From Candidatus Thorarchaeota archaeon (GTDB lineage: Archaea > Asgardarchaeota > Thorarchaeia > Thorarchaeales > Thorarchaeaceae): a stretch of DNA of 64,000 nucleotides. The notes under the pieces are model-generated. The model did no database searches, was not told the DNA's origin, and saw nothing but the letters and a program-made list of their open reading frames with translations. Location: contig JAOUFI010000002.1 in NCBI GenBank assembly GCA_029858305.1, positions 21,778-85,777 on the forward strand, in the 5' to 3' direction. The position numbers and the translations under genes are program-made. How positions within the stretch are numbered: the stretch's first letter is position 1; every line of letters begins with the position of its first letter. Positions 15,770-61,409 of the stretch are shown one piece after another.

Positions 15770-15860
15770 CTCATTAACCAAATATATTCTCCCTCAGCGC
15801 AGCTTGTGACCTTCTTAATAGAATGAATGAACAAAAGTTTGTCGTTTCCTCGGAGGATAT

Positions 15861-23652: not shown

Positions 23653-23731
23653 AGATATTCTCTACGCAATTTGATTGAACCAAAACCAAAAAAGACTATT
23701 TTCACAATATATCAATTGGAGAGTTCATTAG

Positions 23732-24318: not shown

Positions 24319-24933
24319 TTAACCCTTACGCTCTGATATGTCCTCACGCAGGGTGTCGAGCCATAAGGGGGCTCCCTTCAGCAGAGATGCTTGTTCAGGG
24401 GTGAGCTCCTCATACTTGACCAGAGTCATGTCATCGGGCAGGATTCCACTGACTCCAGCAGGATCCTCCATCACTAGTGTGAAGGGTAGCTCACCGCGAA
24501 GTGCAGCTTTCATCTCTTCGAGTATCTCGGATGCGCGCATTCGCTCTTCTTCAAGTTCAGCGAATCCGCCCGCAGTTTCAACCACAGCACGCACTCTGAA
24601 TAAAAGACCTTCAACATTGGAAATAAAAGCATCAGCCGCAGGACCAGGTTCTACATCGATTCCCCACTCAAGAAAACGATAGGTACAGGAGCTAGAGCGA
24701 ACTACTCTTACATTTAGAAGTGATACATCGTCGACATATAATGTGAATCGCGAAGGGTTTCTCTGCTCAGCTGAAAACACATCATTATGACTAAATCCGC
24801 AAGCAGGACAATGGACCATAAACATAGCAAGCTCATTGAAGAAGGGAACGCTATAGAGCATAGAACGCACTTCAAGCTCACCCATATCACATACTGGACA
24901 TTTGGATGTATTCTCATTTTCCGATGACATCAT
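24319..24933 (-). CDS. ZPR1-type zinc-finger protein (single ZPR1 module, archaeal type)
   Basis: CPVCDMGELEVRSMLYSVPFFNELAMFMVHCPACGFSHNDVF gives the CxxC-x25-CxxC ZPR1 ribbon. A beta-rich A-domain-like region follows. Confidence 0.8.
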   Translation of the reverse strand: MMSSENENTSKCPVCDMGELEVRSMLYSVPFFNELAMFMVHCPACGFSHNDVFSAEQRNPSRFTLYVDDVSLLNVRVVRSSSCTYRFLEWGIDVEPGPAADAFISNVEGLLFRVRAVVETAGGFAELEEERMRASEILEEMKAALRGELPFTLVMEDPAGVSGILPDDMTLVKYEELTPEQASLLKGAPLWLDTLREDISERKG

Positions 24934-31200: not shown

Positions 31201-31744
31201 TCTGTGTGGCTCCAGTTTTTAATTGATTAATGAGAGAAGATATTTTTGTAGCCATCTCCTCAAGATGGCGGAGCAATTGTTGCTGTTGCTTTTTATCGAG
31301 CGAATTTAATATAGAATCAAACGATTCTATCGAGTGTTTCATCCCATGCATATGGAATTTAACGCGTTCTTCTGGGTCCAAGAGCTTTTCCCAAAGGCGT
31401 GGTCCAAGCCGAGTTTTCTCTCCCACGGCGCCCTTCATGTGTTTGATTATTAGAACCATCTGCTTCTTGCCTTCCTCTGTAAGTCGATATGTCTTGCTTC
31501 GGCCTTCAGTTGAAGCAGCTTCAATAATACTGTCTTCCTCCAAGGATGAAAGCAAAGGATATATGGTTCCAGGGCTTGGGTTCCACTCACCTTCAGATAA
31601 CTCCCCTAGTCGTTGCATAATATCGGTTCCAGTCATTTCTTGGGACCGTAACAGACGAGGGATAATATGACGAAGAAGGCCTCTAGGTACTGATTGGGGC
31701 ATACCGAGATGTTCACAATCTTTATCCTGAGACTCATCGTTCAT
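31193..31744 (-). CDS. PadR-family transcriptional regulator
   Basis: LLRSQEMTGTDIMQRLGELSEGEWNPSPGTIYPLLSSLEEDSIIEA...KTYRLTEEGKK is a typical PadR wHTH. ATG 31744 was chosen. The track's 89-aa N-terminal extension has no homology and covers the divergent promoter region. Confidence 0.8.
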   Translation of the reverse strand: MNDESQDKDCEHLGMPQSVPRGLLRHIIPRLLRSQEMTGTDIMQRLGELSEGEWNPSPGTIYPLLSSLEEDSIIEAASTEGRSKTYRLTEEGKKQMVLIIKHMKGAVGEKTRLGPRLWEKLLDPEERVKFHMHGMKHSIESFDSILNSLDKKQQQQLLRHLEEMATKISSLINQLKTGATQNV

Positions 31745-31856
31745 TATTTTAGCTCCTGAATTATCGCATCCGATATCGGATACGATATAAAGATTGTTGT
31801 ATCTACATCCGGTTTCTTTAGAGGATTGACTCAGAGCAAGTTTGATAAGAATCTCC

Positions 31857-36328: not shown

Positions 36329-38605
36329 TCATTGTAGATATAATGCAATGGTAAGAGAATGAGTGCAATACTTACAACGAATTGGCAGACGTTTTCCCAG
36401 ATCTTCCACTTGATCTGTTTCTAGGGGTGCTCCACATCGTAGACACACCCATGAATCCATTGTGTCAGCAAGCTCATCAATGGTTGTAGGTAGCATTGAT
36501 ACATCCTCACCAAGGGCTTCTACTTTTACAACTGAGTGACGACCATTTTCTGGACCAGATATTAGGAGAACAACCGCTATCTTTCGCTTTGTATACTTGC
36601 CTTCAGCATAGCCACGGATGGTTCCTATGAATTCACCCGAAATTACATGCTCCTCAGTATCCACAACATGGAAATTCTTCGTAGGCAATATTTTCTCAGC
36701 CTTCGTGAATAAGACCTTAGCATTCCAATCAAGAGTCTGCTCTTGCTGAGTCTTTTCAAGACTGGATAGAACAAGGTTAAACTCTGCAGATGTTTTCTTA
36801 GAAGGGGTCAAAAGATCGCAGACTGAACGAATCAGATATGGCTCTACACTCATTGTGTGTAACTGATCGAGAAAATCAATGTATGAAACTGTTGCAACAA
36901 CTTTTCCCTGTACACAATCCTTTGTTGGGTAGAACGTGAACTGAGGGCTTCTAAAGCCGCCTACTTCGATTCTAGATATTGTTTTCACACTCTCTCCAGC
37001 CAGCTCCATACAGTCTACCGGATATGCAACAATACTCACTGTTACATTTGTGATAACATATCCACTATTATTGGCTACTTTGACCTTGTAATCAAATTTA
37101 CCTCCAACAATCTCACAACCACGCATAGCCTTAACTCCGCCATCTGGAGAATCAATGGATTCACCCTCCGCTTCTAGAGTTTCAGGTGGTTTGGGTTCAC
37201 TCACTTCAACTGGAGGTTTTGCCTTGTCAGCCAGCATTTCTGCATATGCATTCTGCATAGCTTTGGCATGGTCAGGAGGAATATCAAATACGTACTTTCC
37301 GTGAATTGAGCACAATTGAACAACCCGGTCCTCACGACCACCAGGTTCCACATATACTAAATCTAATGGCTCATAACACTCAGGACATTGGAAGAAACGC
37401 TTGTAAAGATCGACAAGAGTCTCTAGCTCCAATTCAGGTTTAAACAGTCTCTTACTTCTATGACTGTTTCTACACTCTACATCAAACTCTACGAGTCCTC
37501 GACGTTCTTCAACATCTCTTAGTGTGAGCGGCATACTACATTTTTCGCAGCTTAGACTTCTTACAATAGATGGGAGGCGGTCAATTAAGTGTTCATGGTC
37601 AGAAATAATATTGAAGATGGAAGGGGTTGCTTCTCTTTGCATCACACCATGAATTGGACAGACAATCTGGAATGCAACTTTCTTTGCACTCTTCCTCTTA
37701 CTCAGAATATGTGTTAAGTGTCCACAATCATCGCATGTGAGTATAGCAGCTGTTATCCGGTTAGCAACTGCATCATTCCATGTGAGTGGAAGTATCCTCT
37801 CTGTAGTGACCTTATTGCCAGGGCAAATGCACTTCAACTTGTAGCCAGATTTATCATCCTCAATACTTCTTATTGCCAGAGGTTGTCTGCACTCATTTGT
37901 AGTGAGAGTGGCTCGAAGTACTGCATCCTCAGGTATCTCAGAAATTGATTCTCTAAGTGGACCTACAAATTGTGTAGGAATGTCCTTCTTAGTAACACCA
38001 TGAACTGGGCATGCGACATATACACGTGCTGAATTACCTCGTTCTTCTAAATCAGCTATATGTCCAGGAAGTCCACATTTATCGCAATGAACTACTCGCT
38101 GCAGAATTCTCTTTAGAAGAGATGTTTCCAAGTCACTTGGGAGGTACCTACTTGCCTTGTGATTATTTGCACATCTTACCTCGATCTCTATTATTCCTCG
38201 ACGTTGCTCTACCTCGCTGATAGCATATACAAACCCACACTGTGGACATCTGAAAGAATCAATGATGGCTCTTGGACTATCAACCTCTGCAGCCGCAAGC
38301 TGTACAGTTGAAAGAAACTCTCTTGGAAATTCACGTTTCTCCATCCCATGACGCGGGCAGAGAAAGATTCCCTCAGTCTTTGATCCTTGGATAATAGTAT
38401 CAACAAGTGTCATGTTCGAGCCACACTCTGTGCATACAAACATCTTCTTGAAAATCTCTGAACCAACATCGCTTATCTGATGCTCGGCGAGTCGCCTTGC
38501 ACTTTTATGACCATTCAGACATTGTGTTTCAAGAGTCAGGATGTGGTCTTGCATCTCAGCGTTTCGTACGTACAGGGGTTCTTGGCATTTCTTGCATGAG
38601 AACAC
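36329..38605 (-). CDS. Multi-zinc-ribbon protein, paralog of 34397..36244, with an added Ig-like beta-sandwich and alpha/beta domain before the terminal ribbon
   Basis: It has the same eight-unit A/B layout. Unit 5 is degenerate: TTNEC...CICPGNK has lost one Cys and the His. The C-terminal part reads GGKFDYKVKVANNSGYVITNVTVSIV... and the terminal ribbon is CLRCG...CKYC. Confidence 0.75.
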   Translation of the reverse strand: MFSCKKCQEPLYVRNAEMQDHILTLETQCLNGHKSARRLAEHQISDVGSEIFKKMFVCTECGSNMTLVDTIIQGSKTEGIFLCPRHGMEKREFPREFLSTVQLAAAEVDSPRAIIDSFRCPQCGFVYAISEVEQRRGIIEIEVRCANNHKASRYLPSDLETSLLKRILQRVVHCDKCGLPGHIADLEERGNSARVYVACPVHGVTKKDIPTQFVGPLRESISEIPEDAVLRATLTTNECRQPLAIRSIEDDKSGYKLKCICPGNKVTTERILPLTWNDAVANRITAAILTCDDCGHLTHILSKRKSAKKVAFQIVCPIHGVMQREATPSIFNIISDHEHLIDRLPSIVRSLSCEKCSMPLTLRDVEERRGLVEFDVECRNSHRSKRLFKPELELETLVDLYKRFFQCPECYEPLDLVYVEPGGREDRVVQLCSIHGKYVFDIPPDHAKAMQNAYAEMLADKAKPPVEVSEPKPPETLEAEGESIDSPDGGVKAMRGCEIVGGKFDYKVKVANNSGYVITNVTVSIVAYPVDCMELAGESVKTISRIEVGGFRSPQFTFYPTKDCVQGKVVATVSYIDFLDQLHTMSVEPYLIRSVCDLLTPSKKTSAEFNLVLSSLEKTQQEQTLDWNAKVLFTKAEKILPTKNFHVVDTEEHVISGEFIGTIRGYAEGKYTKRKIAVVLLISGPENGRHSVVKVEALGEDVSMLPTTIDELADTMDSWVCLRCGAPLETDQVEDLGKRLPIRCKYCTHSLTIALYLQ

Positions 38606-40534: not shown

Positions 40535-40622
40535 CTGAATTCAACCCAATATTTACTCAACTGAATGGTATAAAAGTGTCTGAAATACATAACCCTGCTT
40601 GCTGCTAGGAGAACCTTCATCA

Positions 40623-42488
40623 ATGAGTAGGTTTAGTGCCCTATCTATGAACCAGCTGTGGTTTGCGATAATGGTTTGCCTGATGCTGTTTACGCCATCA
40701 GATTGCCAAGCTATTGTAAACACAGCAGAGGTAAGTATCACGTCAGAAGCCTCACAAATACCAGACCGCCGGATCTATGGAGAGAATATTGCATCAGAGG
40801 TATATGCAATTCCAACCTACACTGGATTTCAAGACCTGGTACATAAATTCACTGAGAATCATTCCAGATGGGTCATGGACCAGGCAATGGTCGATAGAGG
40901 AGCTAATATGTATGCTAGAAATTATATCGTTGAGCAGCTCAAAGATAGATCTTCGGGGCGTATTGAGGTGGAGATAATTGGTAATCACAAGAATGTAGTA
41001 GGTCGACTTCCAGGATATTTGCCAGGAGATGATAATCCAGTACTTGTAGTATCTGCCCATTATGATTCTGTAAAGGATTCAGACGGGGCTAATGCCGATG
41101 GAAGTGGTATCGCGGTTGTCCTTGAGCTTGCATATGCAATGTCGCAATACATGTGGCCGCTGGATATCTACTTCATTGCGTTTAATGCACTCTATTCATT
41201 TCAATTCATGAGTGGTAGTCCGGAAGTAGCAAATGTGCTCCAACAAAGAGGAATTGATATTCTCGCCATGTACAATGTCGATACCATTCTAGTTACAGAT
41301 TCAGCACTTCCCTCGGATGAACGAATCCAGATAGGCTATCTTTCAGGATCCGTTGAAACCTATCACCAAAGCAAATACTGGGGAGATCTAGCACGGATGA
41401 TTAGCAATAACTATGGAATGAATTCATTCGTTCCGATTCCATCTGGTATATTCTACTTATGGGAAACCTCAGATCAGGAGGCATTCTATCAGCGCGGTTA
41501 TAATAATATACTATGTGTCTTCGAATCAGGACTCGCAATAGATGGTAGCTATCACAATGTGAATGATCGATGGGACTATCGACAGCTAAACTATAATCTA
41601 GGTAAGGAAACCGCAGCTGTCATTGGAGCCAGTATGGCTTTCACAATGGGTAGGAAATATGGAGAACCTGTCCAACTCAAATACAATTTTATTATAGGTG
41701 GGGGCCGCATCGAGAAATTCTACATGGCAGTCACCACATCCACAATATTGAACATTACAGTTCGTTGGTTCGGTGGCTCAACCTCATACAACGTGTACAA
41801 TCCAAGTAATACTCTTGTAGCTAGCGCAATCTGTGATTATACTTCAGCCTGGGTTCCAACTAACATCCTGAATATACCTGTAACCGCTAAGGGTCTGTAT
41901 GCTCTTGAAATTGAAAATACAAACTTTGTCAGTGTTGGTTATGAGTTGACTATTACGTATGATTCAGATATCGACGGTAACGGGATTCTGGATAGCCAGG
42001 AATACTGGCTTGATGAGAGTCTGTTTGTGACAGACCAGGACAATGATGGTATCAGTGATGCAGAAGAGATATTCCTAGGGACAGATGGCAATCAGGTTGA
42101 TTCTGACGGCGATACGATGGATGACAAATACGAAGTTGACATGGGATTCGACCCCAATGATGCATCAGATGGAAATCTCGACGCTGACTCGGATGGACTA
42201 ACAAATGCACAAGAGTACTCTGGGGGATTGAATCCGTTTTCATCTGATTCGGATGGTGACTCAATAGATGACCTATGGGAATTAGAGAATGGTCTTAATC
42301 CATTGATAGATGACGCAGCACTTGATCCTGATGGGGACGGGAGGACGAATCTTGAGGAGTATCTAGCCGGCACGAATCCGCAGATTGCAGAATTCAGTTC
42401 ACCTCCAATTCTTTTCATAGTCTCGCCAATTGCCATCGTTGCAACTATCGCAGGATTTGTTTACTTTCGAAATAGAAAATTTGTGTAG
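40623..42488 (+). CDS. Secreted M28-peptidase-fold protein with mutated active site, TSP3-like Ca-binding Asp repeats and a C-terminal TM anchor
   Basis: Signal peptide is [27 protein letters not shown] and ADGSG are retained, but the EE position reads [12 protein letters not shown] and SDH reads SDQ. The C terminus reads [12 protein letters not shown]...[13 protein letters not shown]...[12 protein letters not shown]...[13 protein letters not shown]. Confidence 0.75.
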
Positions 42489-42501: not shown

Positions 42502-44319
42502 ATGATGAATAAGATTCTGTTAGGAGTGTTCATTTGTGTCTCACTTTTCTCAGCCTCATTTGGAGTTACAAGTTTTCCTCATTCTCAAAAGACCATTGAC
42601 ACAGTATATACCGTTTCTGAGAACCTAGAGAGAGTCTATGGTGTTGACTACTCGAGAACCATTTTCCAAACAATTTCAGCGAATTCATTCAAAGATTATG
42701 TCATCAAGTTGACCGAGAACGGTTCTAGGTGGATTCAATCACCCACATTGATGAGCGAGGCTAATTCTGCTGCTAGGAATTGGATTGCCAATGAGCTCAT
42801 CGCAGTTTCTAACAGCAGAATAGAGGTCGAGGTTCTAGGAGAATATCATTCGGTTCTTGGGCGCCTACCTGGATACCTTCCAAACAATGCACCCGCAATA
42901 CTTGTCGGAGGTCATTATGATGGTCTCGCTGTTGGAGCTGGTGCAAATGATGATGGGAGTGGAGTAGCTGCCATCCTCGAGCTTGCTCGAGTCCTATCAC
43001 AATACAACTGGCCACTTGACATTTATTTTGGAGCGTGGAATGCAGAAGAAATCGGATTATTGGGATCTGGTGAAGTAGCTCATATATTGAGCTTGAGAGG
43101 TGTTGAACTACTTGTTCACTATAATATCGATATGCTCTTGGTTCCCCATCCAGAGAGGCTATCTGTTTTAATGGCATATCCTGTTGGGTCATATCATGAT
43201 GGGAAGTATTGGGCGGATCTTCCCAGAGCATTGAGTAGCAATTATGGTCGTAATGGGATTGAACCGATAATCTCAAGTGATTTTTCTGGTTGGCAATCGT
43301 CCGACCATTGGCCATTCATCCAAAGGGGCTATCTGAGGTCTCTGTTTGCCCATGAGAGTGGATTTGCCTACGATTATGCATATCATACAAGCGGAGATGT
43401 GTGGAATAATCCACTCTATAATTATGGAGTAGCAATCGAGGGTGTAAAGGCAATCGGTGCAAGTATTGCTTTCACCATGGGAAGAGCATACCAACAATTA
43501 ATCCTTGAGAACCACAAGATAACTCTGAATCCGGGATCTCAGAAGAATTATTCAATAACTATCACAGGACAGACAATAATCAATGTTACAAGTCGATGGT
43601 GGGGTGGATCAATTTCATTCAAACTGTACAATCCGGAGAATCAACTTCTAAAAGAAGTAATACGAGATCAGACATCACCGTGGGAGATGTCAGTTGTCAT
43701 TCAGCAGACTGTTAATACAGAAGGCGTTTACAAGTTGTTCGTTCTCAATCAGGGGAGTACTAGTACCGGATGTGATTTGACCTATGAATATGACTCAGAT
43801 ATTGATGGAAATGATGTACCAGATAGCGAAGAGTTTTGGTTTGATGCAAGCTACTTCATGCTCGACAGTGATTTAGATACTCTCAGTGATGGGCAAGAAA
43901 TGATACTCGGAACATCTTGGGTCAATGCGGATTCAGATTTTGATTCTATACCTGATAATTGGGAAATCAATTTTGGACTAAATCCACTGGATCCCAGCGA
44001 TGCATTAGGAGATGAGGATGGAGACACACTCACTAATTTGGAGGAGTATCAACATAACAGTAATCCACTTCTAGTTGATTCTGACTTCGATCAAATGCCA
44101 GATGATTTTGAGGTTGCACACAATCTTAATCCAGCTGTCGATGATTCCCAAGAAGATCCTGATCAAGATTTAGTCTCGAATCTTGATGAATATCTTGAGG
44201 GGACAGATCCGCAGTATGCTGAGCTGCGCCTGGAGAGATTTGCCATACCCATCACAGGTCTTTTGATTGTGATTATCATTATAGCAGCTGGAATCGTTCT
44301 ATGGAACAAGAAACGCTAG
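42502..44319 (+). CDS. Secreted M28-family metallopeptidase (intact ligands) with TSP3-like Asp repeats and a C-terminal TM anchor
   Basis: GGHYDG, GANDDGSG, WNAEEIGLLGSGE, HYNIDML and SSDHWPF are all present. The domain layout matches the upstream paralog. Confidence 0.8.
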   Translation: MMNKILLGVFICVSLFSASFGVTSFPHSQKTIDTVYTVSENLERVYGVDYSRTIFQTISANSFKDYVIKLTENGSRWIQSPTLMSEANSAARNWIANELIAVSNSRIEVEVLGEYHSVLGRLPGYLPNNAPAILVGGHYDGLAVGAGANDDGSGVAAILELARVLSQYNWPLDIYFGAWNAEEIGLLGSGEVAHILSLRGVELLVHYNIDMLLVPHPERLSVLMAYPVGSYHDGKYWADLPRALSSNYGRNGIEPIISSDFSGWQSSDHWPFIQRGYLRSLFAHESGFAYDYAYHTSGDVWNNPLYNYGVAIEGVKAIGASIAFTMGRAYQQLILENHKITLNPGSQKNYSITITGQTIINVTSRWWGGSISFKLYNPENQLLKEVIRDQTSPWEMSVVIQQTVNTEGVYKLFVLNQGSTSTGCDLTYEYDSDIDGNDVPDSEEFWFDASYFMLDSDLDTLSDGQEMILGTSWVNADSDFDSIPDNWEINFGLNPLDPSDALGDEDGDTLTNLEEYQHNSNPLLVDSDFDQMPDDFEVAHNLNPAVDDSQEDPDQDLVSNLDEYLEGTDPQYAELRLERFAIPITGLLIVIIIIAAGIVLWNKKR

Positions 44320-50450: not shown

Positions 50451-50975
50451 ATGGAGGAGCAATATGTGGATGAAACTGAACTGCTGAAAAACACAATTCG
50501 GGAATGGTTCTCGCGAGAGGGCACTAAAGTTGAGAGCATCTCAGATCCAAGAGCTGCGTTTCTGTACAAAGTAAAGTTCATGCGGTTCTTCTTCACAGTT
50601 GTGCGTCCAAATGACCAGAGGTATGTTCAGGTCGAGTCCCAAATCATGATTTCTCCGCAGCATCAAAAGCTCCTGACAGCTGAGAAGCTACGAGAGTTCC
50701 AGATGCAGGCTCTAAAGTTCAGCTTCACACAGAGTGTAAATCTAGGTTTTATTCAACCAAAGCCAGGGCAACCAGGTCCGCAGCCTCCGGGACCGGGCTT
50801 TGTTATATCAGATAGACTCTATGATGATGCATTCTCTGAACAGAATCTTTGGAAGACCATGCGGAGGCTTCATAGTGCGATAGACATGGTCATTGCGATC
50901 CTCAATGATATAACTGGACAACCAGGACAGAAAACAGCAGACGCCACGGATGCAGGACCATCATATTATACTTAG
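50451..50975 (+). CDS. Hypothetical protein; the pattern resembles a YbjN/DUF2299-like fold interrupted by a Pro/Gly/Gln linker
   Basis: LLKNTIREWFSREGTKVESISDPRAAFLYKVKF...VQVESQIMISPQH...; the low-complexity stretch is KPGQPGPQPPGPG. The family guess is unverified. Confidence 0.55.
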   Translation: MEEQYVDETELLKNTIREWFSREGTKVESISDPRAAFLYKVKFMRFFFTVVRPNDQRYVQVESQIMISPQHQKLLTAEKLREFQMQALKFSFTQSVNLGFIQPKPGQPGPQPPGPGFVISDRLYDDAFSEQNLWKTMRRLHSAIDMVIAILNDITGQPGQKTADATDAGPSYYT

Positions 50976-51122
50976 AATACATTCTCGATTTATCGACCGG
51001 ATACAATCCACAGCATGTTGATATATGTAATTTACATAGAAAATTGTATAGGATGCTACAATGAAGGATAGCTCTTTTACTTGAGTTGTTTGTAGTTGAC
51101 GAAAAGTAAGAGATTTTCAAAA

Positions 51123-54100
51123 ATGGGGCTTAGACGGATATTCATCATTGGTATTTTGATTCTAAGCATAGGCTTTGCTTCACACAGTACAACAACTGAT
51201 TTTTTAACATCTAATTTTGAACCTCAAGTAGCACATCCCTCTGATACTCATACATCTTCATCTGTTGAAGGAATAGGAAATAGTCTTCTTTCAGCTGCGG
51301 GATATTCCCGTAATATCAATAATTTACAATTTTCACTAGCGAACAGCTACTCAGACAGTGAGTCACATAATCAAATCATAGATTTATCATCCTACCATAT
51401 TGATGGTTGGTCATTGTATGAGGTTGAAATTTCTACTACAAGAATTGTAGCATTAGCAGAACGAGAGATAATTGGATCCAGAACTAGTCCAGGTCACATC
51501 TTATTCAACATATCAAAATATGATACTGGATATTATGACCAGTTGACACAGGGATTCTATGGTATGAGTCATGATGGTAAACTAGAAAATATCTCACTCT
51601 TGTATACTTCATCATCATATGATCCCCTGTATCATCATTATGCATATTTCGACCTTAGATCAGATTATTCAGATGGGGCTACAAATATGGTGTCCTCTGT
51701 CCCATTAGGAAATGTAGGACTTACTCCGACCTGGGCAAGTGTAACAGAATCCACAACTCTAGATGCAGACACAATATATTATGCAGTAATGAACGGGACC
51801 AGACTTATAGAGGTCTTCGGTACATTCCCAATAATTCAATGGTATTATGAGGATTCAGAAGGTACCTATGAAACGCGACGCCATACTACAGAATATATCC
51901 CCTGGAGTTCTAGTAGACCATATGAGGCTCTGCTTAACTATACTTATATTCCGTGGAATACAACAAGTAATTCTGCTCTTGAATTCTCGGATCCATCTAT
52001 CATAGATTTGCGAGGAAATTCATCATTATTGGCAGGTTCTCAATGGAAATTCGATTCTCTTACTAATGTTTCACAAATACAATTCTCATCGAATCAATCT
52101 ATATCAGTAGAATACGATCTTACACTTAGATACAAGCAGTCTGTCACATCCTCCACATCTTGGTATGCAGATTCTTCTAATTCGGTCATTTTATGGAATA
52201 TAACAACATCTATCGATTATCCAGAACTAGCTGGTTCTCAAGATAGAAATCTAACTGTGTTGGTTCCAAGTGACTGGACTGCAAGTCATTTATTTAACAT
52301 CACTTACCCAACTCAATATTTCGACCATTTCACACAAATAGAATCCAGCGTAAATTGCTTTGGTCTGGCGGATGAAACTTGGATATTGGAATGTACATCT
52401 CCAAATTATATGAAATCGTTATCGATGTTTGATACGAGTGATGATAGTATTATCACTGATAAAGTAAGTATATCTGTCACAATGGATATCAATGCAACAA
52501 TTGAAGACCAATCATCAAATCCCGCAGCAAATGGTAATGCGCATCTTGTAGTGTACTATCAAGCCGCAGAAGAATATTCTGATGATTACTCAGTAACATC
52601 AGGAACATCGCATTACCAATGGGACATCTCAACAGATTCATCATCTAATGGTCTACACACGATAGATGTGTATTGGTCAAATGGAACAGAAGTAGGATAT
52701 CAATCAAATGATGTTGTAGTATTCTATGAAACAACACTCGTAGCAGATGAATATACCATCAATGACTACACTGATGACTCCTTTTACATTGGAATTGACT
52801 ACAACCAAGTATTTCCAGCAGCAGGGATTGACTCATCAAGTGCAGATGTCACCTATTCATTCGGATCTGTGGTGAACCAGTCTCTCACTGACCAGAGTAA
52901 TGGAAGATGGGATGCAACTGTTTCAACAGCTAGTATGTCACCAGGACTACACACATTGACTATCTATGCTGAAGGATATGCACTCGAAAATCGGAGTATA
53001 ACCATAGATGTAGATCTTATTCATGATACCTTACCCCTGACAATTATTTATTCCAACATTTCTTATGTTGAAACTACAGAGCTTTCTGTTGCATACGAAA
53101 GAGTCGGAAACATACCAATTCCTGATGCACATGTCGAAGTGACAATTGGAACAACTACATGGCAGCTAAATTTTGATGAGGGCAGCGGTACCTACAAGAT
53201 GATTTTCAATGGAACCGATATTGATCCAGGTTTTGGGATCCATACCCTCACTATTAATGCATCTCTAGCAGGGTATAAATCGCAAAGCTATACTAAGACA
53301 CTCATTATTCATGAAGAGAGTACCATACTCAATATAGAATGGTCAGGGAGTACTGACATCACCTATGTTGAGAGCGTGACCCTCTATGTCGACTACCAGA
53401 TGTCCAATACAACTCCAATCTATCCCGCTACTGTTGAGGTCACCATTGATACTGACATCTATGTGATGAACTGGAATGGTGGAACCGGGAGATACTGGTA
53501 TCAATTCAATGGCAGTGATTTACTTCCAGGATTTGGATTTCATAATTTGATAATTAAAGCCTCTAAATTTGGATATGCCTATCGGAGTGACCTCACACAA
53601 ACACTGAATATAACTGAAGAGCCAACAACACTGGTTCTGTCTTGGTCCAATGGGAATGAAATATCATATGTGACCTCTACAATGTTGATTGCAAAATACA
53701 ATCAATCAAACGGATCTCCATTAATTAATGCAACAGTTAGCGTTACAATAGATACAGAATCATGGCTAATGGTGTGGAATACTGATACATTTGCCTACGA
53801 GTTGACCTTCAATGGAACCGATTCAATACCGGGTTTTGGGACATTCGATGTATCAGTTCTTGCATCACTTTATGGTTTTGAATCAAAACCCGATGATAAC
53901 GAAACACTCTATATACACGAGGAGAGCACCTTATTCAACATAGAATGGTCAGGGAGTACTAATATCACCTATGTTGAGAGTGTGACCCTCTATATCGATT
54001 ACCAAATGTCCAATGCAACTCCAATCTATCCCGCTATAGTTGAAGTCATCATTGATACCGACATCTATGTGATGAACTGGAATGGTGGAACCGGGAGATA

Positions 54101-57100
54101 CTGGTACCAATTCAATGGCAGTGATTTACTTCCAGGATTTGGATTTCATAATTTGATAATTGAAGCCTCCAAATTTGGATATCAAAATTATTCCAATATT
54201 TTCCAGACATTGAATATTACTGAAGAACCCACAACACTTGTTTTGTCTTGGTCAAATACCAATAGCATTACCTATGTCACCTCTACAACGCTAATTGCAA
54301 AATACAATCAATCAAACGGATCTCCAGTAATTAATGCAACAGTTAGTGTTACAATAGATACAGAATCATGGCTAATGGTGTGGAATACTGATACATTTGT
54401 GTACGAGTTGACCTTCAATGGAACTGATTCAATACCGGGTTTTGGGTCATTTAACATATCAGTAATTGCGTCATTATATGGCTTTGAATTAAAGCCCGAT
54501 GACAACGAAACACTCTTTGTTGATTTAGAACCAACCTCAATCACAATCGCTTGGTCAAATACTGGAAGCATTACCTACATAGATCAAACTACTCTCATTG
54601 TATCCTACAGAATGAACAATAATTCAGTAATTCCAATTGATGCTGTGGTTAATGTAACAATTGATGGATTTCCAACGTGGGATCTTGATTGGGATTGGGA
54701 TTATGGAACTGAAACATATCGTCTTGTCTTTAATGGTACAGACATACCCCCAGGTTTCGGCACGCACAATCTAACCATTAGAATTGGTAAGTATGGCTAC
54801 GTGAACCACGTGAATACCACCCTAACTCTCACTATAGATTTAGTACCAACAATCCATGAAGTATATTGGTCAAACACTAATTCCATTACATACATAGAAT
54901 CAACAACTCTTACAGTCAATTATACAATGACCAATGGAACACCCGTTACTGATGCAATAGTGAATGTCTCAACAGTTGCGGGATTCTGGCTGATGAAGTG
55001 GAATAATGATACATTTATGTATGAGTTGGCTTTCAATGGAACCGATTCAATACCAGGATTTGGAACTCATATTCTGACCATACAAATAAGAAAGGTTGGT
55101 TATTCGGATCCTGGAAATCTCACAGAAACCTTGATTCTGGATTTGGAACCAACAAGTATGAATATGGCTTGGCTGGATTCACCAACCATCTCATTCCTCG
55201 AATCGACAACTCTTGTTGTGTACTATAGAATGAGTAATACTTCTCCGATTTTAGATGCTACAGTTATAGCTACAATCGACGGTATCCAGTACGAACTCGT
55301 ATTGCATCCAAGTGGCTCATATAGATACACCTTCAGTGGAACAGATAATCTTCCGGGAATTGGAACACATTTACTGAAAATTGATGCGAACAGAACTGGA
55401 TTTGACTCTAAATCTGATGAAGGCGAGGTCTTGATAATTAATGAAGAATCAACATTCATTGATATCATATGGTTAGATAACAATACCATAACTTTTGTTG
55501 AAACATCAATTCTAGTCATAAATTATACAATGACTAATGGTTCTCCGATTGCAGGAGCGACAGTTAATGCCACAATAGATGGATTTCCAGCTTGGGACCT
55601 TGTATGGGATATTGATACACAAACATATCGCTTAACATTCAATGGAACAGATGTCCCGCCTGGATTGGGATTCCACAATATCACAATCAGAGCTGACAAA
55701 TTCGGATACGAAAGTCGGAATGGTTTGACCAACATTACTTTAGATAGAGAACAATCATACCTCGTTGTAAGTTGGATTCCTGATAATGATATTTCATACA
55801 TGACTAGTTCTATTCTCGTGGTTAGTTATAGGATGACGAACTCTTCGCCAATTTCTGAAGCTACTGTGAATGTTTCAATTGGAGAGGGTTCATGGCTGAT
55901 GAAATGGAGTGTTGCTAATCAAGATTACAGACTTCAGATCAATGGAACCGATATACCACCTGATTTAGGAAACTATACTATGACTATTGAGGCTACAATG
56001 TTTGGATTCTATGCAGCATACAATCTAACAGCTCAGGTTATACTTCGAGAAGAACCAACAAGTCTAGATGTGCATTGGGCAAATGGAATAAACAATCCAA
56101 GTTTCCTTTCTTACACATATCTCATAGCAGATTACCTTTATGGAGATTCAACACCTATTGTGGATGCCATTCTGAATGTCTCAATAAATTCATTCATTTT
56201 TCGAATGGGATGGAATGCTAGTGGTTTCTATCAATTGAAAATCAATGGTTCGGACACCTATCTAGGTGTTGGGAATAATTCAATCACAATAAGTGCTGAG
56301 AAATATGGGTATGTCACTAAGATGAATACTACTAAAGTTGTGATTCCTGTGGTCCCAACCAAACTTACTCTTGAATGGGAATTCTCTGATACGATAACCT
56401 ATGTAGAATATACTACACTTCATGCATACTACGTAATGTACAATGATTCTTTGATTTCTGAAGCATCTGTCAATGTGACGATAAATGGAATGACACTGCC
56501 TATGATTTGGAGTTCTTCTAGTAACTCATATGAACGAACATTTTACGGGTCTGACAGTTCGTTAGGTATCACATCATTTCCAATTCTAGTCGAAGCAGCC
56601 ATGATTGATTTCCAGAGTCTATCAAATTCTGATGAGATATTAACTATTCAAACTGAACCTACTACACTTGCGATATCTTGGATTGGTGGAGACAATATCA
56701 CTTACTTTCAACAGACCACACTATCAGTACAATTCGTCATGTCTAATGGATCACCAATTTCAATTGGAGTTCTTAATGCGACTATAGGAGGAGTCCTTTT
56801 CGACCTTAATTGGAATATCATTAGTGAGGCATACGAAGTGGTAATCTATGGAGATGATGCCCGATTGGATTACTTGGACTATGATGTCTTGATTAACGCA
56901 TCAGCATACGGGTTTGTCGCTTCAGTAGATACTTACCAATACTTCACTATCAGACTAGAAGATACATATCTTGTCATTGATTGGGTTCCGAGTAACACGA
57001 TATCTTACTTGGACTCAACAGTATTCAGAATCTTTTACCGATATGCATCCAATCATTCTCCTGTTTTAGGAGCAGTTGTTAGTGCTTCAACATGGGTAGC

Positions 57101-60100
57101 GAATTATAACAGCAGTTCTGGAGCTTATGAGATAATATTCACAGGCTCTGATTTTCCAACTCCAATACCGGGTACACACTCTCTTGATGTTGTTGCCTCA
57201 AAATCAAACCATCAATCTCACACTAATGATCTTGAAGAAATCACCATCACTAAGGAAAGCACATACATCGAGTCTTGGTGGCTCAATGATAATAATACAA
57301 TAACTTTCGTTGAGAATACGACTATCTATATCAACTACTCAATTGCTGCTTCAGGCGTTTCAATTGTGGATGCTAACGTTACTGTCAGAATTGGCACAAC
57401 CATATGGGATACACTCTATAATCCAATTCTGGAACTTTACTATTTCACATTTATAGGAGATATGGATCCACCAGGACTTGGTGTCCACGGGTTGTTTATT
57501 TCAGCATCTTATAGTTTTCATGAAGGATATCAATCTGCAGTAGATAACTCGCAAATCTTAGAAATTGAATCAGCATCTGTATCAATTGATAGCTATTGGA
57601 TTGTTAGTGGTACTATAACATATCTACAACAGACAACACTTGTAGTAAACTATACTTTATTGGATGGAGAAGCCATTCCACTAGCACTAGTCAATGTAAC
57701 AATTGGTCAAACATTCTGGTATGCACAATGGGATGAATTGAGTGAAACCTATCGGTTGACTTTCAATGGGTCAGATTCTCTACCAGGTTTGGGATTCCAC
57801 GAACTCAGTATCCGGGCAAATCGAACTGGATTTGACTCACTTACTGATAGCTCTATGACTTTGAATATCATTGAAGAATCAACCACTACGAGTGTTCTTT
57901 GGAGTAATTCTGATAGCATAACATACTTTGAGCATACGTATCTATTTGTCAGGTACAGGATGAGCAATGGTTCAGACATTCTTGGTGCTAGCGTCAATGC
58001 CACAATAGGTTCTACAAAATGGATCTTAATTTGGAATAGCACGCAAGGAGCTTATGGAGTCTTATTCAAAGGATGGGATAGCCCTCCGGGACTAGGTAGT
58101 CATTCAATCCTGATTAACGCAACAAAACATGGTTTCGCATACATTGAGAATTCAGTTGAGGTTCTGACATTACTAAAGGACCCAACTACAATACAAGTTT
58201 CATGGTCAAATGGAAATAACATCACATATGTTGAAACTACAACGATAATTGTACAATATAAAATGAGTAACGGTACCCCAATATCCACAGGAACTGTTAT
58301 TGCAACAATTGGACTAGATAGTTGGGAACTTCTGTGGAATGTATCATCACAGGTATATTACTTCACATTTTATGGGAATATGAGTCCACCAGGTCTTGAT
58401 ACCTTCTCAGTTCAGATTGATGCATCTAGTGCCATTTTTGCATCCCAATCGACTTCGGAATTTCTTACATTGAGAGAGGAAGGAACAGTTACTATTGTAT
58501 CATGGACGACTGCAACATTCGATTGGACCCAGAATGTTGTAATTGGAATTGAATACCGAGATAGCTATGGTAGATTGGTCAGTGACGCAACTCAGAAGAC
58601 GATATCTGTAGATGGTTCAGAATTTACCCTATCAGGGACAAATGGAACCTATTGGTATTCATTCAACAATTCATTCGGTTTAGGGCATCACAATGTTGTC
58701 ATGAATATCAGTAAGTTTGGATATGAATTTGCTGTGAATGCAACAGTTAGCTTTGATATTATTGAAGCCTCAACGAGTCTTGAACTAGTCTGGAGTATGA
58801 CTACAATTGACTACTTGGGGCAGATCACTCTGACAGTAGATTACACATATACGGGTACAGGTGATTCGATTCCAGTAGGTCTAGTCAATGTGAATATCAC
58901 AATTGATGGAATCACGACTCTCAATTTGACACCAATTGGAGACTATTGGACCATTACATTGAATGGAGATTTCTTAGATTTAGGAACGCATAGTGTCGTT
59001 ATACTTGCACAAGCCTATGGCTACAACTTCGCTGAGGATAGTGACAGTCTTACAGTTAATGAGGTCTCTACAGGTACATCTGGAATTTCGTGGTCACCTT
59101 CAGACCTTACAATAGAATTCACTGGTTTCTTACAACTTGTTGTGGATTATACATACGCTAGCGGAGATGTTCCAGATACAGCAACAGTGAATGTCACGAT
59201 TGATGGTCATTTCTATGAACTTGATTATCTAGTCGGTGCTTGGCGAGTGACAATTCCTGGTAGCATCCTAGGTGTTGATGTCTTTGATGCTCATATCAGT
59301 GCATGGCTCCACGGATATGAGTTACAGACCTTTACTACTTCAGGAATTAATGTCACACTTGCAGCTAATTCATTCTATGTGACTTGGGATCCATCAGATC
59401 TAACACCAACCTACATTGATACGGTAACACTTACTGTTGCCTATATACAGGACTTTGAACCAATAGAAGACGCCACTGTTCAACTATTCATCAATGGAAC
59501 TCGCTATGAGCTAATCTATAGCTCTATTGATGAGAGATGGTTCCTCAGTATTGATGCATCAGATATTGATTTGGGAGTATGGAATGTTACTGTCACAGCA
59601 AACAAAACAGGATATGCAGAAGGGTTCCAAATGGATCTCCTCACAGTAGTTGAAGCTCCAACAATTCTTGATATTCAAGATACTGGAGATACTCTCTATT
59701 TCGATGAAACAACTACAATAGACATCTACTACCAATTAACAAATACAAGTGCAGTTCCCGGGGCAATAATATCATTCACTCTTGATGGTATTGAACAGAC
59801 AATAACTTGGAATGGTTACCATTGGACAACTACTCTCGATGGGACAGAGCTAGGAGTTGGTGTCTATACTTACAATATCATAACGTCAGTATATGGATAT
59901 GAGACTCAGATGGACACATTTGTGATTACTATACTAAGCGTCCCAACTTCAATGATATCAGATTCGAGTATTGTGATGTATGCTCGTGACTTTGTTTCAT
60001 TCAGGTTTACATACATTGATGAAAGGACTAGCACCTCAATTGATGCAAGTGAATTTAACATCACATGGATCGAATACTACAACATAGTGACTCTACCGAA

Positions 60101-61211
60101 TTACACCTATATTATCACAATAGGTGGAAATGATTTCCATACAGGGAATTATACATTCGAACTCACATTAGGAAGAGTCGGATTTGATAATAGTACAGGA
60201 GCCATATCCATCGAAGCACGACCAATACCTGTTGAATTCATAATGGAATCCACATATACTCAATATGAAAATGAAACATTAAACATAGAGTTTCAATTGA
60301 TTGATACTGTGCATTCAAGTCTAATCGATTGGGGATACTTAATTGTTGAACTCGAAGGAGCTGGGTATTTAGCAATTTTTGAAAGTGTAAGTAGCTCATA
60401 CATAGTGAATTTTAGATTACCAATGAATATGGATCCGGGTTCATACATACTCTATTTCTACTCGTGGACAGAAGATTGTGTTGAAATCACCGAACCTGCG
60501 TCGCTTGAGGTCCTAGCCAAGCATACATATATTCTTTCCATTGATGCGATTGATCAAATTCAATCAGGAAACGATCTAACAATTACAATCACAGCGATGG
60601 AAGGCACAGAATTTGCTTCTGGAATCGCGCTAGATATAACAATCGTTGTCACACTAAGTCAAGGTGGTCAACAGTTCATTGTAGAACAAACTGTAACGGA
60701 TTCTAACGGACTTGCCATAATCATTTTTGAAGTGCCTGATAATGCTGTAGAATTAGAGGTTAGCGCAAGTTTTGATGGTTCTATATCAGAATGGCCAGCA
60801 TTATCATCAATTAAGAGTGTAGAAGTGACTCCTGCAGGAACAGGTGGTACCGGATTGATTATCCCAGACCCACTTGTACTTTCAATCATATTTGGCGGGA
60901 TTTCAGTTTCAATCTTAGCTTTAGCTTTCAGAAGGAAGAGAAGGGGTAGCGGAAGTGCTGTGTCAGTTTCTGTCCATTCTACTGCTCCAATTCTACCTCC
61001 ATCAAGTCCAGCAACTGGAATTCAACAGCAATTGAGAGAAGAGATTCTAAATAGTGAAGAGGGGATAACACGAGCAGAGTTATCACGGAAACTTGGAGCC
61101 TCAGCAAGTAAGGTTGGATCGATGGTCAAAGACCTTCTTGATTCTGATTCCGGCTTTTTTGAAGTCAAAGAAGGTGCTAAGAAACTAATCAAGTTCAAAA
61201 AATCAGGTTGA
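51123..61211 (+). CDS. Giant surface protein: signal/anchor, head region of about 640 aa, about 25 tandem Ig-like modules of ~100 aa, one TM, and a 93-aa cytoplasmic tail with a winged-helix-like motif
   Basis: A single unbroken ORF. ATG 51123 (MGLRRIFIIGILILSIGFA) is preferred over the track TTG 51096. The module consensus is ..EPT.L...WSN...ITY.E.T.L.V.Y.M.NG.PI..A.VN.TI....W.L.WN....Y...FNG.D..PG.G.H.L.I.A.K.GY. The C terminus reads LVLSIIFGGISVSILALAF-RRKRR-...GITRAELSRKLGASASKVGSMVKDLL. Confidence 0.85.
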   Translation: MGLRRIFIIGILILSIGFASHSTTTDFLTSNFEPQVAHPSDTHTSSSVEGIGNSLLSAAGYSRNINNLQFSLANSYSDSESHNQIIDLSSYHIDGWSLYEVEISTTRIVALAEREIIGSRTSPGHILFNISKYDTGYYDQLTQGFYGMSHDGKLENISLLYTSSSYDPLYHHYAYFDLRSDYSDGATNMVSSVPLGNVGLTPTWASVTESTTLDADTIYYAVMNGTRLIEVFGTFPIIQWYYEDSEGTYETRRHTTEYIPWSSSRPYEALLNYTYIPWNTTSNSALEFSDPSIIDLRGNSSLLAGSQWKFDSLTNVSQIQFSSNQSISVEYDLTLRYKQSVTSSTSWYADSSNSVILWNITTSIDYPELAGSQDRNLTVLVPSDWTASHLFNITYPTQYFDHFTQIESSVNCFGLADETWILECTSPNYMKSLSMFDTSDDSIITDKVSISVTMDINATIEDQSSNPAANGNAHLVVYYQAAEEYSDDYSVTSGTSHYQWDISTDSSSNGLHTIDVYWSNGTEVGYQSNDVVVFYETTLVADEYTINDYTDDSFYIGIDYNQVFPAAGIDSSSADVTYSFGSVVNQSLTDQSNGRWDATVSTASMSPGLHTLTIYAEGYALENRSITIDVDLIHDTLPLTIIYSNISYVETTELSVAYERVGNIPIPDAHVEVTIGTTTWQLNFDEGSGTYKMIFNGTDIDPGFGIHTLTINASLAGYKSQSYTKTLIIHEESTILNIEWSGSTDITYVESVTLYVDYQMSNTTPIYPATVEVTIDTDIYVMNWNGGTGRYWYQFNGSDLLPGFGFHNLIIKASKFGYAYRSDLTQTLNITEEPTTLVLSWSNGNEISYVTSTMLIAKYNQSNGSPLINATVSVTIDTESWLMVWNTDTFAYELTFNGTDSIPGFGTFDVSVLASLYGFESKPDDNETLYIHEESTLFNIEWSGSTNITYVESVTLYIDYQMSNATPIYPAIVEVIIDTDIYVMNWNGGTGRYWYQFNGSDLLPGFGFHNLIIEASKFGYQNYSNIFQTLNITEEPTTLVLSWSNTNSITYVTSTTLIAKYNQSNGSPVINATVSVTIDTESWLMVWNTDTFVYELTFNGTDSIPGFGSFNISVIASLYGFELKPDDNETLFVDLEPTSITIAWSNTGSITYIDQTTLIVSYRMNNNSVIPIDAVVNVTIDGFPTWDLDWDWDYGTETYRLVFNGTDIPPGFGTHNLTIRIGKYGYVNHVNTTLTLTIDLVPTIHEVYWSNTNSITYIESTTLTVNYTMTNGTPVTDAIVNVSTVAGFWLMKWNNDTFMYELAFNGTDSIPGFGTHILTIQIRKVGYSDPGNLTETLILDLEPTSMNMAWLDSPTISFLESTTLVVYYRMSNTSPILDATVIATIDGIQYELVLHPSGSYRYTFSGTDNLPGIGTHLLKIDANRTGFDSKSDEGEVLIINEESTFIDIIWLDNNTITFVETSILVINYTMTNGSPIAGATVNATIDGFPAWDLVWDIDTQTYRLTFNGTDVPPGLGFHNITIRADKFGYESRNGLTNITLDREQSYLVVSWIPDNDISYMTSSILVVSYRMTNSSPISEATVNVSIGEGSWLMKWSVANQDYRLQINGTDIPPDLGNYTMTIEATMFGFYAAYNLTAQVILREEPTSLDVHWANGINNPSFLSYTYLIADYLYGDSTPIVDAILNVSINSFIFRMGWNASGFYQLKINGSDTYLGVGNNSITISAEKYGYVTKMNTTKVVIPVVPTKLTLEWEFSDTITYVEYTTLHAYYVMYNDSLISEASVNVTINGMTLPMIWSSSSNSYERTFYGSDSSLGITSFPILVEAAMIDFQSLSNSDEILTIQTEPTTLAISWIGGDNITYFQQTTLSVQFVMSNGSPISIGVLNATIGGVLFDLNWNIISEAYEVVIYGDDARLDYLDYDVLINASAYGFVASVDTYQYFTIRLEDTYLVIDWVPSNTISYLDSTVFRIFYRYASNHSPVLGAVVSASTWVANYNSSSGAYEIIFTGSDFPTPIPGTHSLDVVASKSNHQSHTNDLEEITITKESTYIESWWLNDNNTITFVENTTIYINYSIAASGVSIVDANVTVRIGTTIWDTLYNPILELYYFTFIGDMDPPGLGVHGLFISASYSFHEGYQSAVDNSQILEIESASVSIDSYWIVSGTITYLQQTTLVVNYTLLDGEAIPLALVNVTIGQTFWYAQWDELSETYRLTFNGSDSLPGLGFHELSIRANRTGFDSLTDSSMTLNIIEESTTTSVLWSNSDSITYFEHTYLFVRYRMSNGSDILGASVNATIGSTKWILIWNSTQGAYGVLFKGWDSPPGLGSHSILINATKHGFAYIENSVEVLTLLKDPTTIQVSWSNGNNITYVETTTIIVQYKMSNGTPISTGTVIATIGLDSWELLWNVSSQVYYFTFYGNMSPPGLDTFSVQIDASSAIFASQSTSEFLTLREEGTVTIVSWTTATFDWTQNVVIGIEYRDSYGRLVSDATQKTISVDGSEFTLSGTNGTYWYSFNNSFGLGHHNVVMNISKFGYEFAVNATVSFDIIEASTSLELVWSMTTIDYLGQITLTVDYTYTGTGDSIPVGLVNVNITIDGITTLNLTPIGDYWTITLNGDFLDLGTHSVVILAQAYGYNFAEDSDSLTVNEVSTGTSGISWSPSDLTIEFTGFLQLVVDYTYASGDVPDTATVNVTIDGHFYELDYLVGAWRVTIPGSILGVDVFDAHISAWLHGYELQTFTTSGINVTLAANSFYVTWDPSDLTPTYIDTVTLTVAYIQDFEPIEDATVQLFINGTRYELIYSSIDERWFLSIDASDIDLGVWNVTVTANKTGYAEGFQMDLLTVVEAPTILDIQDTGDTLYFDETTTIDIYYQLTNTSAVPGAIISFTLDGIEQTITWNGYHWTTTLDGTELGVGVYTYNIITSVYGYETQMDTFVITILSVPTSMISDSSIVMYARDFVSFRFTYIDERTSTSIDASEFNITWIEYYNIVTLPNYTYIITIGGNDFHTGNYTFELTLGRVGFDNSTGAISIEARPIPVEFIMESTYTQYENETLNIEFQLIDTVHSSLIDWGYLIVELEGAGYLAIFESVSSSYIVNFRLPMNMDPGSYILYFYSWTEDCVEITEPASLEVLAKHTYILSIDAIDQIQSGNDLTITITAMEGTEFASGIALDITIVVTLSQGGQQFIVEQTVTDSNGLAIIIFEVPDNAVELEVSASFDGSISEWPALSSIKSVEVTPAGTGGTGLIIPDPLVLSIIFGGISVSILALAFRRKRRGSGSAVSVSVHSTAPILPPSSPATGIQQQLREEILNSEEGITRAELSRKLGASASKVGSMVKDLLDSDSGFFEVKEGAKKLIKFKKSG
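53310..54521 (+). repeat. Tandem duplication of a 606-bp two-module unit inside the giant gene (53310..53915 and 53916..54521)
   Basis: The two copies align without gaps. By my count about 27 of 202 encoded residues differ, which is far closer than any other pair of modules. Confidence 0.85.
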
Positions 61212-61409
61212 TTTTAGTGAATCACATAGAGATACCCACAGTTTATTGATATGGATTTACTTCTCTAGTTAGCTACTATACGACAGATTGTAAGCACATC
61301 CCGAAAATATTATGAAGCAGGCAATATGGGTCAGATGATAAATCTCTCATGCGTATAATGAAGGATGTGCTAAGGAACTCTGCGAATCCATGATTCTCGA
61401 GGGAAGAAT

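Follow-up and report, generated by a model that had tools for sequence, protein, structure and literature searches.

Membrane-tethered transcription regulators are already known, and those characterised experimentally are mostly bacterial and have compact sensor parts. A catalogue of such proteins lists 1,384 from archaea in which a transmembrane (TM) region and a DNA-binding domain occur together (Demey et al., 2023, PMC10269533). Among all transmembrane transcription regulators (TTRs), 56% are single-pass, in some a neighbouring membrane protein serves as co-component, and the known ones act on DNA while tethered to the membrane (PMC10269533). ArnR, a membrane-bound helix-turn-helix (HTH) activator of Sulfolobus, is a characterised archaeal example, and ArnR and ArnR1 are one-component regulators that control surface structures (PMC6396743). 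Here, we describe a gene for a giant surface protein in a 64,000-nucleotide window (the whole stretch of DNA that was analysed, from contig JAOUFI010000002.1 of a Candidatus Thorarchaeota archaeon), whose product carries a long repeat ectodomain, a single TM helix and, after the helix, a conserved domain predicted to be a cytoplasmic winged HTH (wHTH). As a statement about structure alone, we regard this arrangement as very probable.

The protein resembles TTRs such as ToxR, TcpP and CadC in being single-pass, with a putative extracytoplasmic sensor part, a flexible linker and a cytoplasmic winged helix, and it has at least one predicted TM region as well as a predicted DNA-binding domain, the match to which lies on the threshold in the window protein and is clear in its relatives. 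Like those TTRs that are joined by an adjacent co-component, it has a conserved partner, whose gene neighbours the giant gene. Membership of the ToxR/CadC type was rejected, since no match to Trans_reg_C was obtained even at E ≤ 10 and since the topology is reversed: ToxR and CadC have an N-terminal wHTH of the OmpR type, whereas the giant protein has its ectodomain first and its wHTH at the C terminus (type I). The subtype of its wHTH is HTH_24/MarR-like, unlike the Trans_reg_C domain of ToxR and CadC, and its DNA binding is a prediction; its ectodomain comprises ∼3,250 amino acids (aa) of repeats, whereas the sensor domains of ToxR and CadC are small. Like ArnR/ArnR1 of Sulfolobus acidocaldarius (PMC6396743), it is archaeal and membrane-bound, with an HTH in the same polypeptide, and it differs from ArnR, which has an N-terminal HTH, cytoplasmic HAMP and sensor domains, two C-terminal TM helices and no large ectodomain.

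In its outer part, the protein is similar to giant repeat adhesins (Bap, SiiE/LapA-type, halomucin-like), which likewise have thousands of residues and display tandem repeats of ∼100 aa, beta-sandwich-like, on the surface. To our knowledge, these adhesins are secreted or anchored to the cell wall or outer membrane, and none of them is known to have a cytoplasmic domain of a DNA-binding type, whereas the giant protein is predicted to be integral to the membrane in type I orientation and to have a conserved wHTH on the cytoplasmic side. No description of the giant-protein family was found in the full-text literature searched.

Membrane Topology of the Giant Protein

The giant gene extends over 51096..61211 on the forward strand, as do all of its features given below, and encodes 3,371 aa when read from TTG. 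The identical NCBI entry (MDH4212592.1) is a hypothetical protein from a metagenome-assembled genome of a Candidatus Thorarchaeota archaeon. The start codon is ambiguous, with TTG at 51096 in the NCBI entry and ATG at 51123 in the JGI/ENA version (3,362 aa, P0005), and the ambiguity is without effect on the finding of a wHTH tail. The ATG start sets MGLRR right before a hydrophobic core, as expected of a signal peptide; the N-terminal hydrophobic segment in question, MGLRRIFIIGILILSIGFA (51123..51179), is signal peptide-like, with RR followed by the core.

At the other end, the translation reads ...IIPDP-LVLSIIFGGISVSILALAF-RRKRR-GSGSAVSVSVHSTAPILPPSSPAT-GIQQQLREEILNSEEGITRAELSRKLGASASKVGSMVKDLLDSDSGFFEVKEGAKKLIKFKKSG-stop. 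A first-pass annotation, made from the letters of the window, had described a hydrophobic helix followed by RRKRR, and the open reading frame (ORF) translates exactly so. The single TM helix, LVLSIIFGGISVSILALAF (60873..60929; aa 3260–3278), has a Gly-Gly pair in its middle (Gly/Pro in relatives) and is the most hydrophobic 19-mer of the whole protein, with a Kyte-Doolittle mean of 2.51, and the only other strong hydropathy segment is the N-terminal signal-like stretch, which gives the second-highest peak (1.93). The basic cluster RRKRR (60930..60944) is a positive-inside signal that recurs as a cluster of Arg/Lys in all relatives, and the tail, counted from RRKRR to the last residue, comes to the 93 aa that the annotation had given. 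The helix is preceded at its outer edge by Asp-Pro (60867..60872), and an Asp or Asn followed by Pro, (D/N)P, stands there in 26 of 26 relatives with a complete TM region; this dipeptide could cap the helix N-terminally, act as a hinge or mark where cleavage occurs. Many relatives have a second short hydrophobic or amphipathic stretch (e.g., ILSFILS) ahead of the invariant (D/N)P.

The distribution of N-X-S/T sequons was used as a further indicator of sidedness. The giant protein contains 108 sequons, against 43.5 expected from its composition, and all of them lie N-terminal of the TM helix, with none in the 93-aa tail, where only ∼3 would be expected, so that their absence there is by itself a weak indicator. 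Together with the basic cluster, this placement fits an outside ectodomain and an inside tail. The predicted topology is that of a single-pass type I protein, N-glycosylated outside, and the cytoplasmic location that the first-pass annotation had assigned to the tail agrees with both signals.

Fold of the Cytoplasmic Tail

The basic cluster is followed by a linker of 24 aa rich in Ser, Pro and Ala (60945..61016), which is predicted to be disordered (AlphaFold2 predicted local distance difference test, pLDDT, below 50 over model residues 33–55) and is the least conserved part of the tail, and then by the wHTH domain of 64 aa (61017..61208), supported by Pfam HTH_24, AlphaFold2, Foldseek and a family profile. 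Its elements are H1 (61017–61052), H2 (61071–61094), H3 in the position of the recognition helix (61104–61142) and a beta-hairpin wing (61155–61196).

The best Pfam match of the isolated tail was HTH_24 (PF13412), for which the curated cut-off is 21.9 bits. Scores were 22.0 bits for a construct of 63 aa, 21.6 bits for 70 aa and 20.3 bits for 121 aa; the tails of two relatives scored 24.0 and 32.4 bits (the latter with an E value of 6.8e-8), and 14 of 25 family tails matched HTH_24 at E ≤ 0.01, the best at 1.6e-8. Weaker Pfam matches of the isolated tail were to MarR_2, TrmB, RPA_C and DUF7343. Searches of NCBIfam gave nothing above cut-off, and only weak matches to Lrs14 and MarR_EPS, both on one relative. 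When the family profile was compared with PDB sequences, the top entry was a designed repeat protein, which was ignored, followed by DNA-binding domains, namely those of SloR of the DtxR family (E = 1.3e-4), CAP/CRP (∼1e-3) and then LexA, XylR, MntR and AdcR.

The AlphaFold2 model of the tail has helices at residues 58–69, 76–83 and 87–99, a short beta element at 74–75 and strands at 104–109 and 112–117, with pLDDT values of 73–78. When this model was compared with the PDB by Foldseek, all 50 matches listed were winged-helix domains or proteins containing one, among them Rpc34, eS25, MarR/MepR, ArsR/SmtB, ScpB, DriD, MecR2 and Z-alpha. The matches listed had probabilities of 0.96–1.00 with modest E values (1.4e-3 to 4.5e-2), and for the MarR, ArsR, SmtB and DriD regulator domains the root-mean-square deviation was 1.5–3 Å over 60–66 columns. 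Thus the MarR/ArsR/TrmB-type wHTH that had been read from residue pattern in the first pass is also what Pfam HTH_24, AlphaFold2 and Foldseek predict, and the tail is a wHTH of the prokaryotic transcription-factor type (HTH_24/MarR/DtxR-like), selectively maintained.

The best sequence matches of the 64-aa domain are thus Lrp/AsnC regulators (HTH_24 plus RAM) and MarR/DtxR regulators. Unlike these, the tail is a bare wHTH, with neither a RAM/AsnC_trans_reg domain nor one for dimerisation or metal binding. Full membership of Lrp/AsnC was rejected: AsnC_trans_reg gave no match, the protein ends 3–4 residues after the wing, and a protein that lacks the RAM domain is not a full Lrp/AsnC protein.

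Conservation and Distribution of the Tail

Searching 1.84 billion representative proteins with a profile built from four close tails yielded 46 matches at E ≤ 1e-3. Matches in a single stretch lay nearly always at the very last residues of the protein. Full-length proteins among them ranged from 2,554 to 3,369 aa (e.g., 2,554, 2,804, 2,848, 2,860, 2,977, 3,179 and 3,362 aa), and shorter matches, such as one of 2,147 aa, are fragments cut at contig ends. Three proteins matched in multiple stretches (P0014, P0031, P0038) proved on reading to be unrelated repeat proteins and were discarded. Two other searches were less sensitive: a word-index search with the 121-aa tail returned three fragments only, and a later profile-based search yielded no more than seven short fragments and none of the long proteins; the distribution therefore rests on the other searches. 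A scan of GTDB genomes with tail patterns found one unrelated bacterial wHTH only (Coproplasma).

The arrangement of TM helix, basic cluster, linker and domain is present in about 30 representative relatives, and the tail is therefore not a chance feature. Wherever the TM region is complete (26 relatives), the order is invariant, namely (D/N)P, a TM helix with Gly/Pro in its middle, a cluster of Arg/Lys, a linker and a domain of 64–66 aa. The cytoplasmic part measures 90–105 aa in most relatives and is longer in four (155–173 aa). In these four (P0012, P0013, P0016 and P0042), an extra insert of ∼80 aa lies after the basic cluster and before the wHTH (e.g., ...GFNIMPLVGSENLIYNMTGKGQLLIVDTIDSLADAFEE...LGSLGLITSIAL); it gave no Pfam match and may be an additional cytoplasmic domain.

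Compared with seven full-length orthologs, the wHTH of the window protein is 36–76% identical, against 25–48% for the adjacent 300 aa of ectodomain, and its identity exceeds that of the ectodomain in six of the seven comparisons. Linker identity is 25–50%, mostly lower than that of the wHTH. The conserved pattern of the domain is G-(L/I)-(T/S)-R...S-x-S-K-x-G...V-(K/R)-x-L-L-x-S-D...(F/Y)-x-E-x-(R/K)-(E/D)-G-x-(K/R)-(R/K)-x-I-(R/K)-(F/Y), and Lys/Arg positions of the third helix and of the wing are among the conserved residues. The first-pass annotation had made conservation in orthologs a check on its proposal, and the tail is indeed found at the C terminus of the full-length relatives; judging from these identities, the wHTH is under purifying selection.

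All giant-protein relatives that carry a taxonomic name are Thorarchaeota. The same wHTH subtype also occurs at the C terminus of two small proteins, P0029 (146 aa, from Hodarchaeota) and P0030 (199 aa), neither of which has an obvious TM segment, and the domain therefore also exists outside a membrane-anchored context.

The Partner Gene and Synteny of the Locus

Gene order around the giant gene is kept in six loci of different Thorarchaeota, and runs from M28 peptidases, two genes without known function and pyruvate:ferredoxin oxidoreductase subunits through a CN hydrolase and DUF2299 to the giant gene, a paralog of ∼1,500 aa and a gene of ∼105 aa, usually followed by LarA and VTT-domain genes. 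The DUF2299 gene (50451..50975, forward strand) lies directly upstream of the giant gene and is syntenic with it in all loci examined. The paralog starts downstream at 61410 on the forward strand and runs off the window at 64000; its full length of 1,513 aa was read from a second locus, L002 (20288–24829).

This partner shares the head-domain type of the giant protein and has a different tail. Whether it also keeps the 93-residue tail had been proposed as a check in the first pass, and it does not: its TM helix (L002, about 23687–23780) is followed by a basic cluster, NRRVKPKKR, and then by a different, longer cytoplasmic region of ∼330 aa (to L002 24829) that contains a wHTH of its own. The first 255 aa of this region are ∼80% identical among many Thorarchaeota fragments, and some sources annotate fragments of the paralog as Lrp/AsnC regulators. 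In the AlphaFold2 model, only the wHTH (pLDDT 76–85, residues 230–308 of P0055) and a juxtamembrane helix were modelled confidently. A domain of ∼190 aa ahead of the wHTH, itself ∼80% identical across Thorarchaeota fragments, had pLDDT values of 30–48 and no Pfam match, and a likeness of it to roadblock/longin-like domains, being unsupported at these values, was dropped. Beyond the wHTH, the paralog has an acidic, Pro-rich linker and a conserved DPMEAFVxDVESLL motif at its C terminus.

When the window and L002 were translated in six frames and searched with a hidden Markov model (HMM) of the giant-tail family, the tail itself was the only match, and the model did not detect the partner's wHTH, which at this level of comparison is without detectable sequence relation to the giant's tail domain. 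Each member of this conserved pair thus presents a winged helix at the cytoplasmic membrane face.

When the two intergenic regions, one ahead of the giant gene (50976–51122) and one separating it from the partner gene (61212–61409), were aligned across five loci, only an oligo-T tract and TCGAGG, which resembles a ribosome-binding site, stood out. The TCGAGG lies at about 61398–61403, 6 nt before the ATG at 61410, is invariant in the window and in L003, L005, L006 and L007, and is probably a Shine-Dalgarno-like site of the partner gene. A T-rich, TCGATTTATCGA-like tract follows the stop codon of DUF2299.

Architecture of the Ectodomain

The signal-like segment is followed by an N-terminal head of ∼620 aa (51180..53036) that is common to the downstream paralog and to the orthologs (37–62% identity) and gave no match in Pfam and NCBIfam searches. 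Next come 23 tandem repeats of ∼101 aa each (53037..59903), which a self-trained HMM recognised as 23 domains with E values of 1e-20 to 1e-39 and a spacing of 93–106 aa. Their consensus is EPTSLxVSWSNxNxITYVExTTLxVxYxMSNGxPIxxATVNVTIxxxxWxLxWNxxxxxYxLxFNGSDxxPGLGxHxxxIxAxKxGY, and they are rich in N-X-S/T sequons. The repeats are probably beta-sandwich modules, as suggested by faint CarboxypepD_reg/MG4 matches on orthologs. Divergent membrane-proximal modules of ∼320 aa (59904..60866), which end in a conserved ...GSISEWP... motif, complete the ectodomain. With its head and 23 repeats, the ectodomain of ∼3,250 aa is fibre-like, and the protein as a whole has only 3 cysteines, with Ser, Thr, Asn and Ile abundant.

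Other Genes in the Window

The remaining gene content fits an archaeal genome, with pyruvate:ferredoxin oxidoreductase subunits, H+-pyrophosphatase, SMC, a ZPR1-type zinc-finger protein and a WD40 protein. Two tandem peptidases of the M28 family (40599–42488 and 42502–44319, forward strand) each have a signal-like N terminus, Asp-rich thrombospondin-type-3-like repeats and a C-terminal TM helix, and both are kept upstream of the giant gene in orthologous loci. On the reverse strand, a protein of 758 aa (36329–38605) consists of repeated CxxC...CxxC zinc-ribbon-like modules with a similar segment after each, and its only Pfam match is a sub-threshold one to DUF7479. The mechanical ORFs of a PadR-like regulator (31193–32011, reverse strand) and a DUF2070 membrane protein (31842–33746, forward strand) overlap by ∼170 nt on opposite strands; their true starts probably lie further in, and the two genes would then form a divergent pair. 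Eukaryote-like proteins, common in Asgard genomes, are represented by a seven-bladed WD40 protein (14624–15781) and a ZPR1-type zinc-finger/jelly-roll protein (24319–24933), both on the reverse strand.

Possible Roles of the Tail

The reading that we favour for the giant protein is a very large type I TTR, and whether its tail serves in signalling by DNA binding is, in our judgment, about evenly balanced. The indications of nucleic-acid binding through the third helix and the wing are indirect, namely the conserved Lys/Arg residues there and the profile matches to DNA-binding domains. In such a regulator, the ectodomain would sense contact, a ligand or tension, the oligomeric state or the integrity of the giant protein would then change, and the cytoplasmic wHTH would bind DNA, perhaps in a pair with another copy of itself or with the partner's own. 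The pairing that a lone wHTH normally needs could come from the ectodomain, from the TM helix or from the partner's wHTH. Binding could take place while the domain is tethered by its flexible 24-aa linker (cf. ToxR, CadC and ArnR), or after proteolytic release. The first-pass annotation had offered release and docking as its two options and omitted a tail that acts on DNA while tethered to the membrane, which, by analogy with known TTRs, would be at least as likely.

Several points weigh against a role in DNA binding. The HTH_24 score of the window protein sits on the threshold (21.6–22.0 against 21.9 bits), the AlphaFold2 model of the tail was built on an alignment of four sequences, and the net charge of the 66-aa domain is small, from -1 to +4. 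A single wHTH that lacks a dimerisation domain usually binds DNA weakly, and no conserved palindromic operator was found in the alignments of the two intergenic regions from five loci. Winged helices are also common as protein-protein modules, with Rpc34, eS25 and ScpB among the fold matches, and the tails have weak matches to RPA_C.

The same near-neutral charge, protein-binding winged helices and RPA_C matches speak for the main rival reading, in which the tail would be a docking module that anchors the surface fibre to a cytoplasmic partner, with no binding of DNA, like the tails of integrins and cadherins. Candidates for the docked component include the partner's conserved cytoplasmic domain, a component of cytoskeletal or ESCRT type, and a small GTPase module. 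The first of these is encoded in synteny and, at ∼80% identity among fragments, could be the ligand, and the domain lies only ∼24 residues from the membrane. We nevertheless consider docking doubtful, although a real possibility, since the sequence-profile matches are to the DNA-binding domains of bacterial and archaeal regulators and not to protein-docking winged helices, since the third helix and the wing keep their basic residues, and since the same domain ends the small proteins P0029 and P0030, in whose sequences no strong hydrophobic segment is visible. A purely biogenic or structural tail, which would act as a sorting or retention signal, bind the membrane surface through its basic wing or tether chromosome or RNA, and take no part in signalling, seems to us very improbable. 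The basic cluster and basic wing do adjoin the membrane, and giant repeat proteins are usually structural adhesins, but a folded domain of 64 aa kept at 36–76% identity exceeds what a sorting signal needs. Archaeosortase-type signals are made up of a signature motif and a TM helix, with a short basic tail closing the protein, and in the PGF-CTERM type just a few residues follow the helix, which is not so in the giant protein. Such a signal was rejected here: no PGF-type motif is present, and the 93 residues that follow the TM helix include a folded domain.

A sub-variant of the favoured reading, with a probability that overlaps it, is release in the manner of Notch or SREBP, in which shedding and intramembrane cleavage would free a DNA-binding fragment of ∼95–110 aa and the wHTH would be inactive while tethered. 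The giant protein is like Notch, SREBP, ATF6 and bacterial anti-sigma factors subject to regulated intramembrane proteolysis in having a large outer part, a single TM helix with helix-breaking residues and a cytoplasmic module of a gene-regulatory type. There is no homology to these proteins, and the released part would be a bare wHTH of 64 aa. Helix-destabilising residues of the Gly/Pro kind are typical of substrates of intramembrane proteases, and they are conserved in the middle of the TM helix across the family (GGIS.P, G.P, GGGG), beside the invariant (D/N)P at its outer edge; such residues (Gly-Gly here, Gly/Pro in all relatives) are necessary and not specific for these substrates, small TM residues fit helix-helix packing equally, and the (D/N)P may do no more than cap the helix at its N terminus. 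Proteolytic control operates on some bacterial TTRs (e.g., TcpP; PMC10269533). The first-pass annotation had suggested that a rhomboid or site-2 protease gene be looked for nearby, and neither the 64-kb window nor the flanking 10 kb downstream contained a gene of the site-2 protease, rhomboid or presenilin type. We regard release as rather unlikely. The favoured reading of the giant protein as a tethered regulator could also be extended to the gene pair, as a two-gene contact receptor made up of a glycoprotein of ∼3,300 aa and a partner of ∼1,500 aa, in which engagement of the ectodomains would join the two winged helices, or free them by cleavage at the (D/N)P-TM region, and the joined or cleaved winged helices would switch genes directly, in a Notch-like way. 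This extension is improbable on our estimate, and no description of such a Notch-like shortcut was found in the literature searched.

Implications for Thorarchaeota

Three features set the giant protein apart from the TTRs characterised experimentally: the fusion of a DNA-binding-type domain to a giant repeat surface protein of the adhesin kind, the type I orientation, with the wHTH last, and conservation throughout an Asgard lineage, jointly with that of a partner carrying a cytoplasmic wHTH of its own. It is therefore proposed as a candidate giant, adhesin-like type I transmembrane regulator, apparently specific to Thorarchaeota, and its tail of 93 residues, which is small and soluble, lends itself readily to tests in vitro. 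Thorarchaeota are an uncultured group that is studied for clues to the origin of eukaryotic cells. If the tail docks a protein, it would show how a major surface fibre couples to the interior of the cell. If the tail binds DNA, it would provide a direct route from surface contact to gene expression, and if the two proteins of the pair were to act together as a contact receptor, a Notch-like shortcut from membrane to genome would exist in archaeal relatives of eukaryotes.

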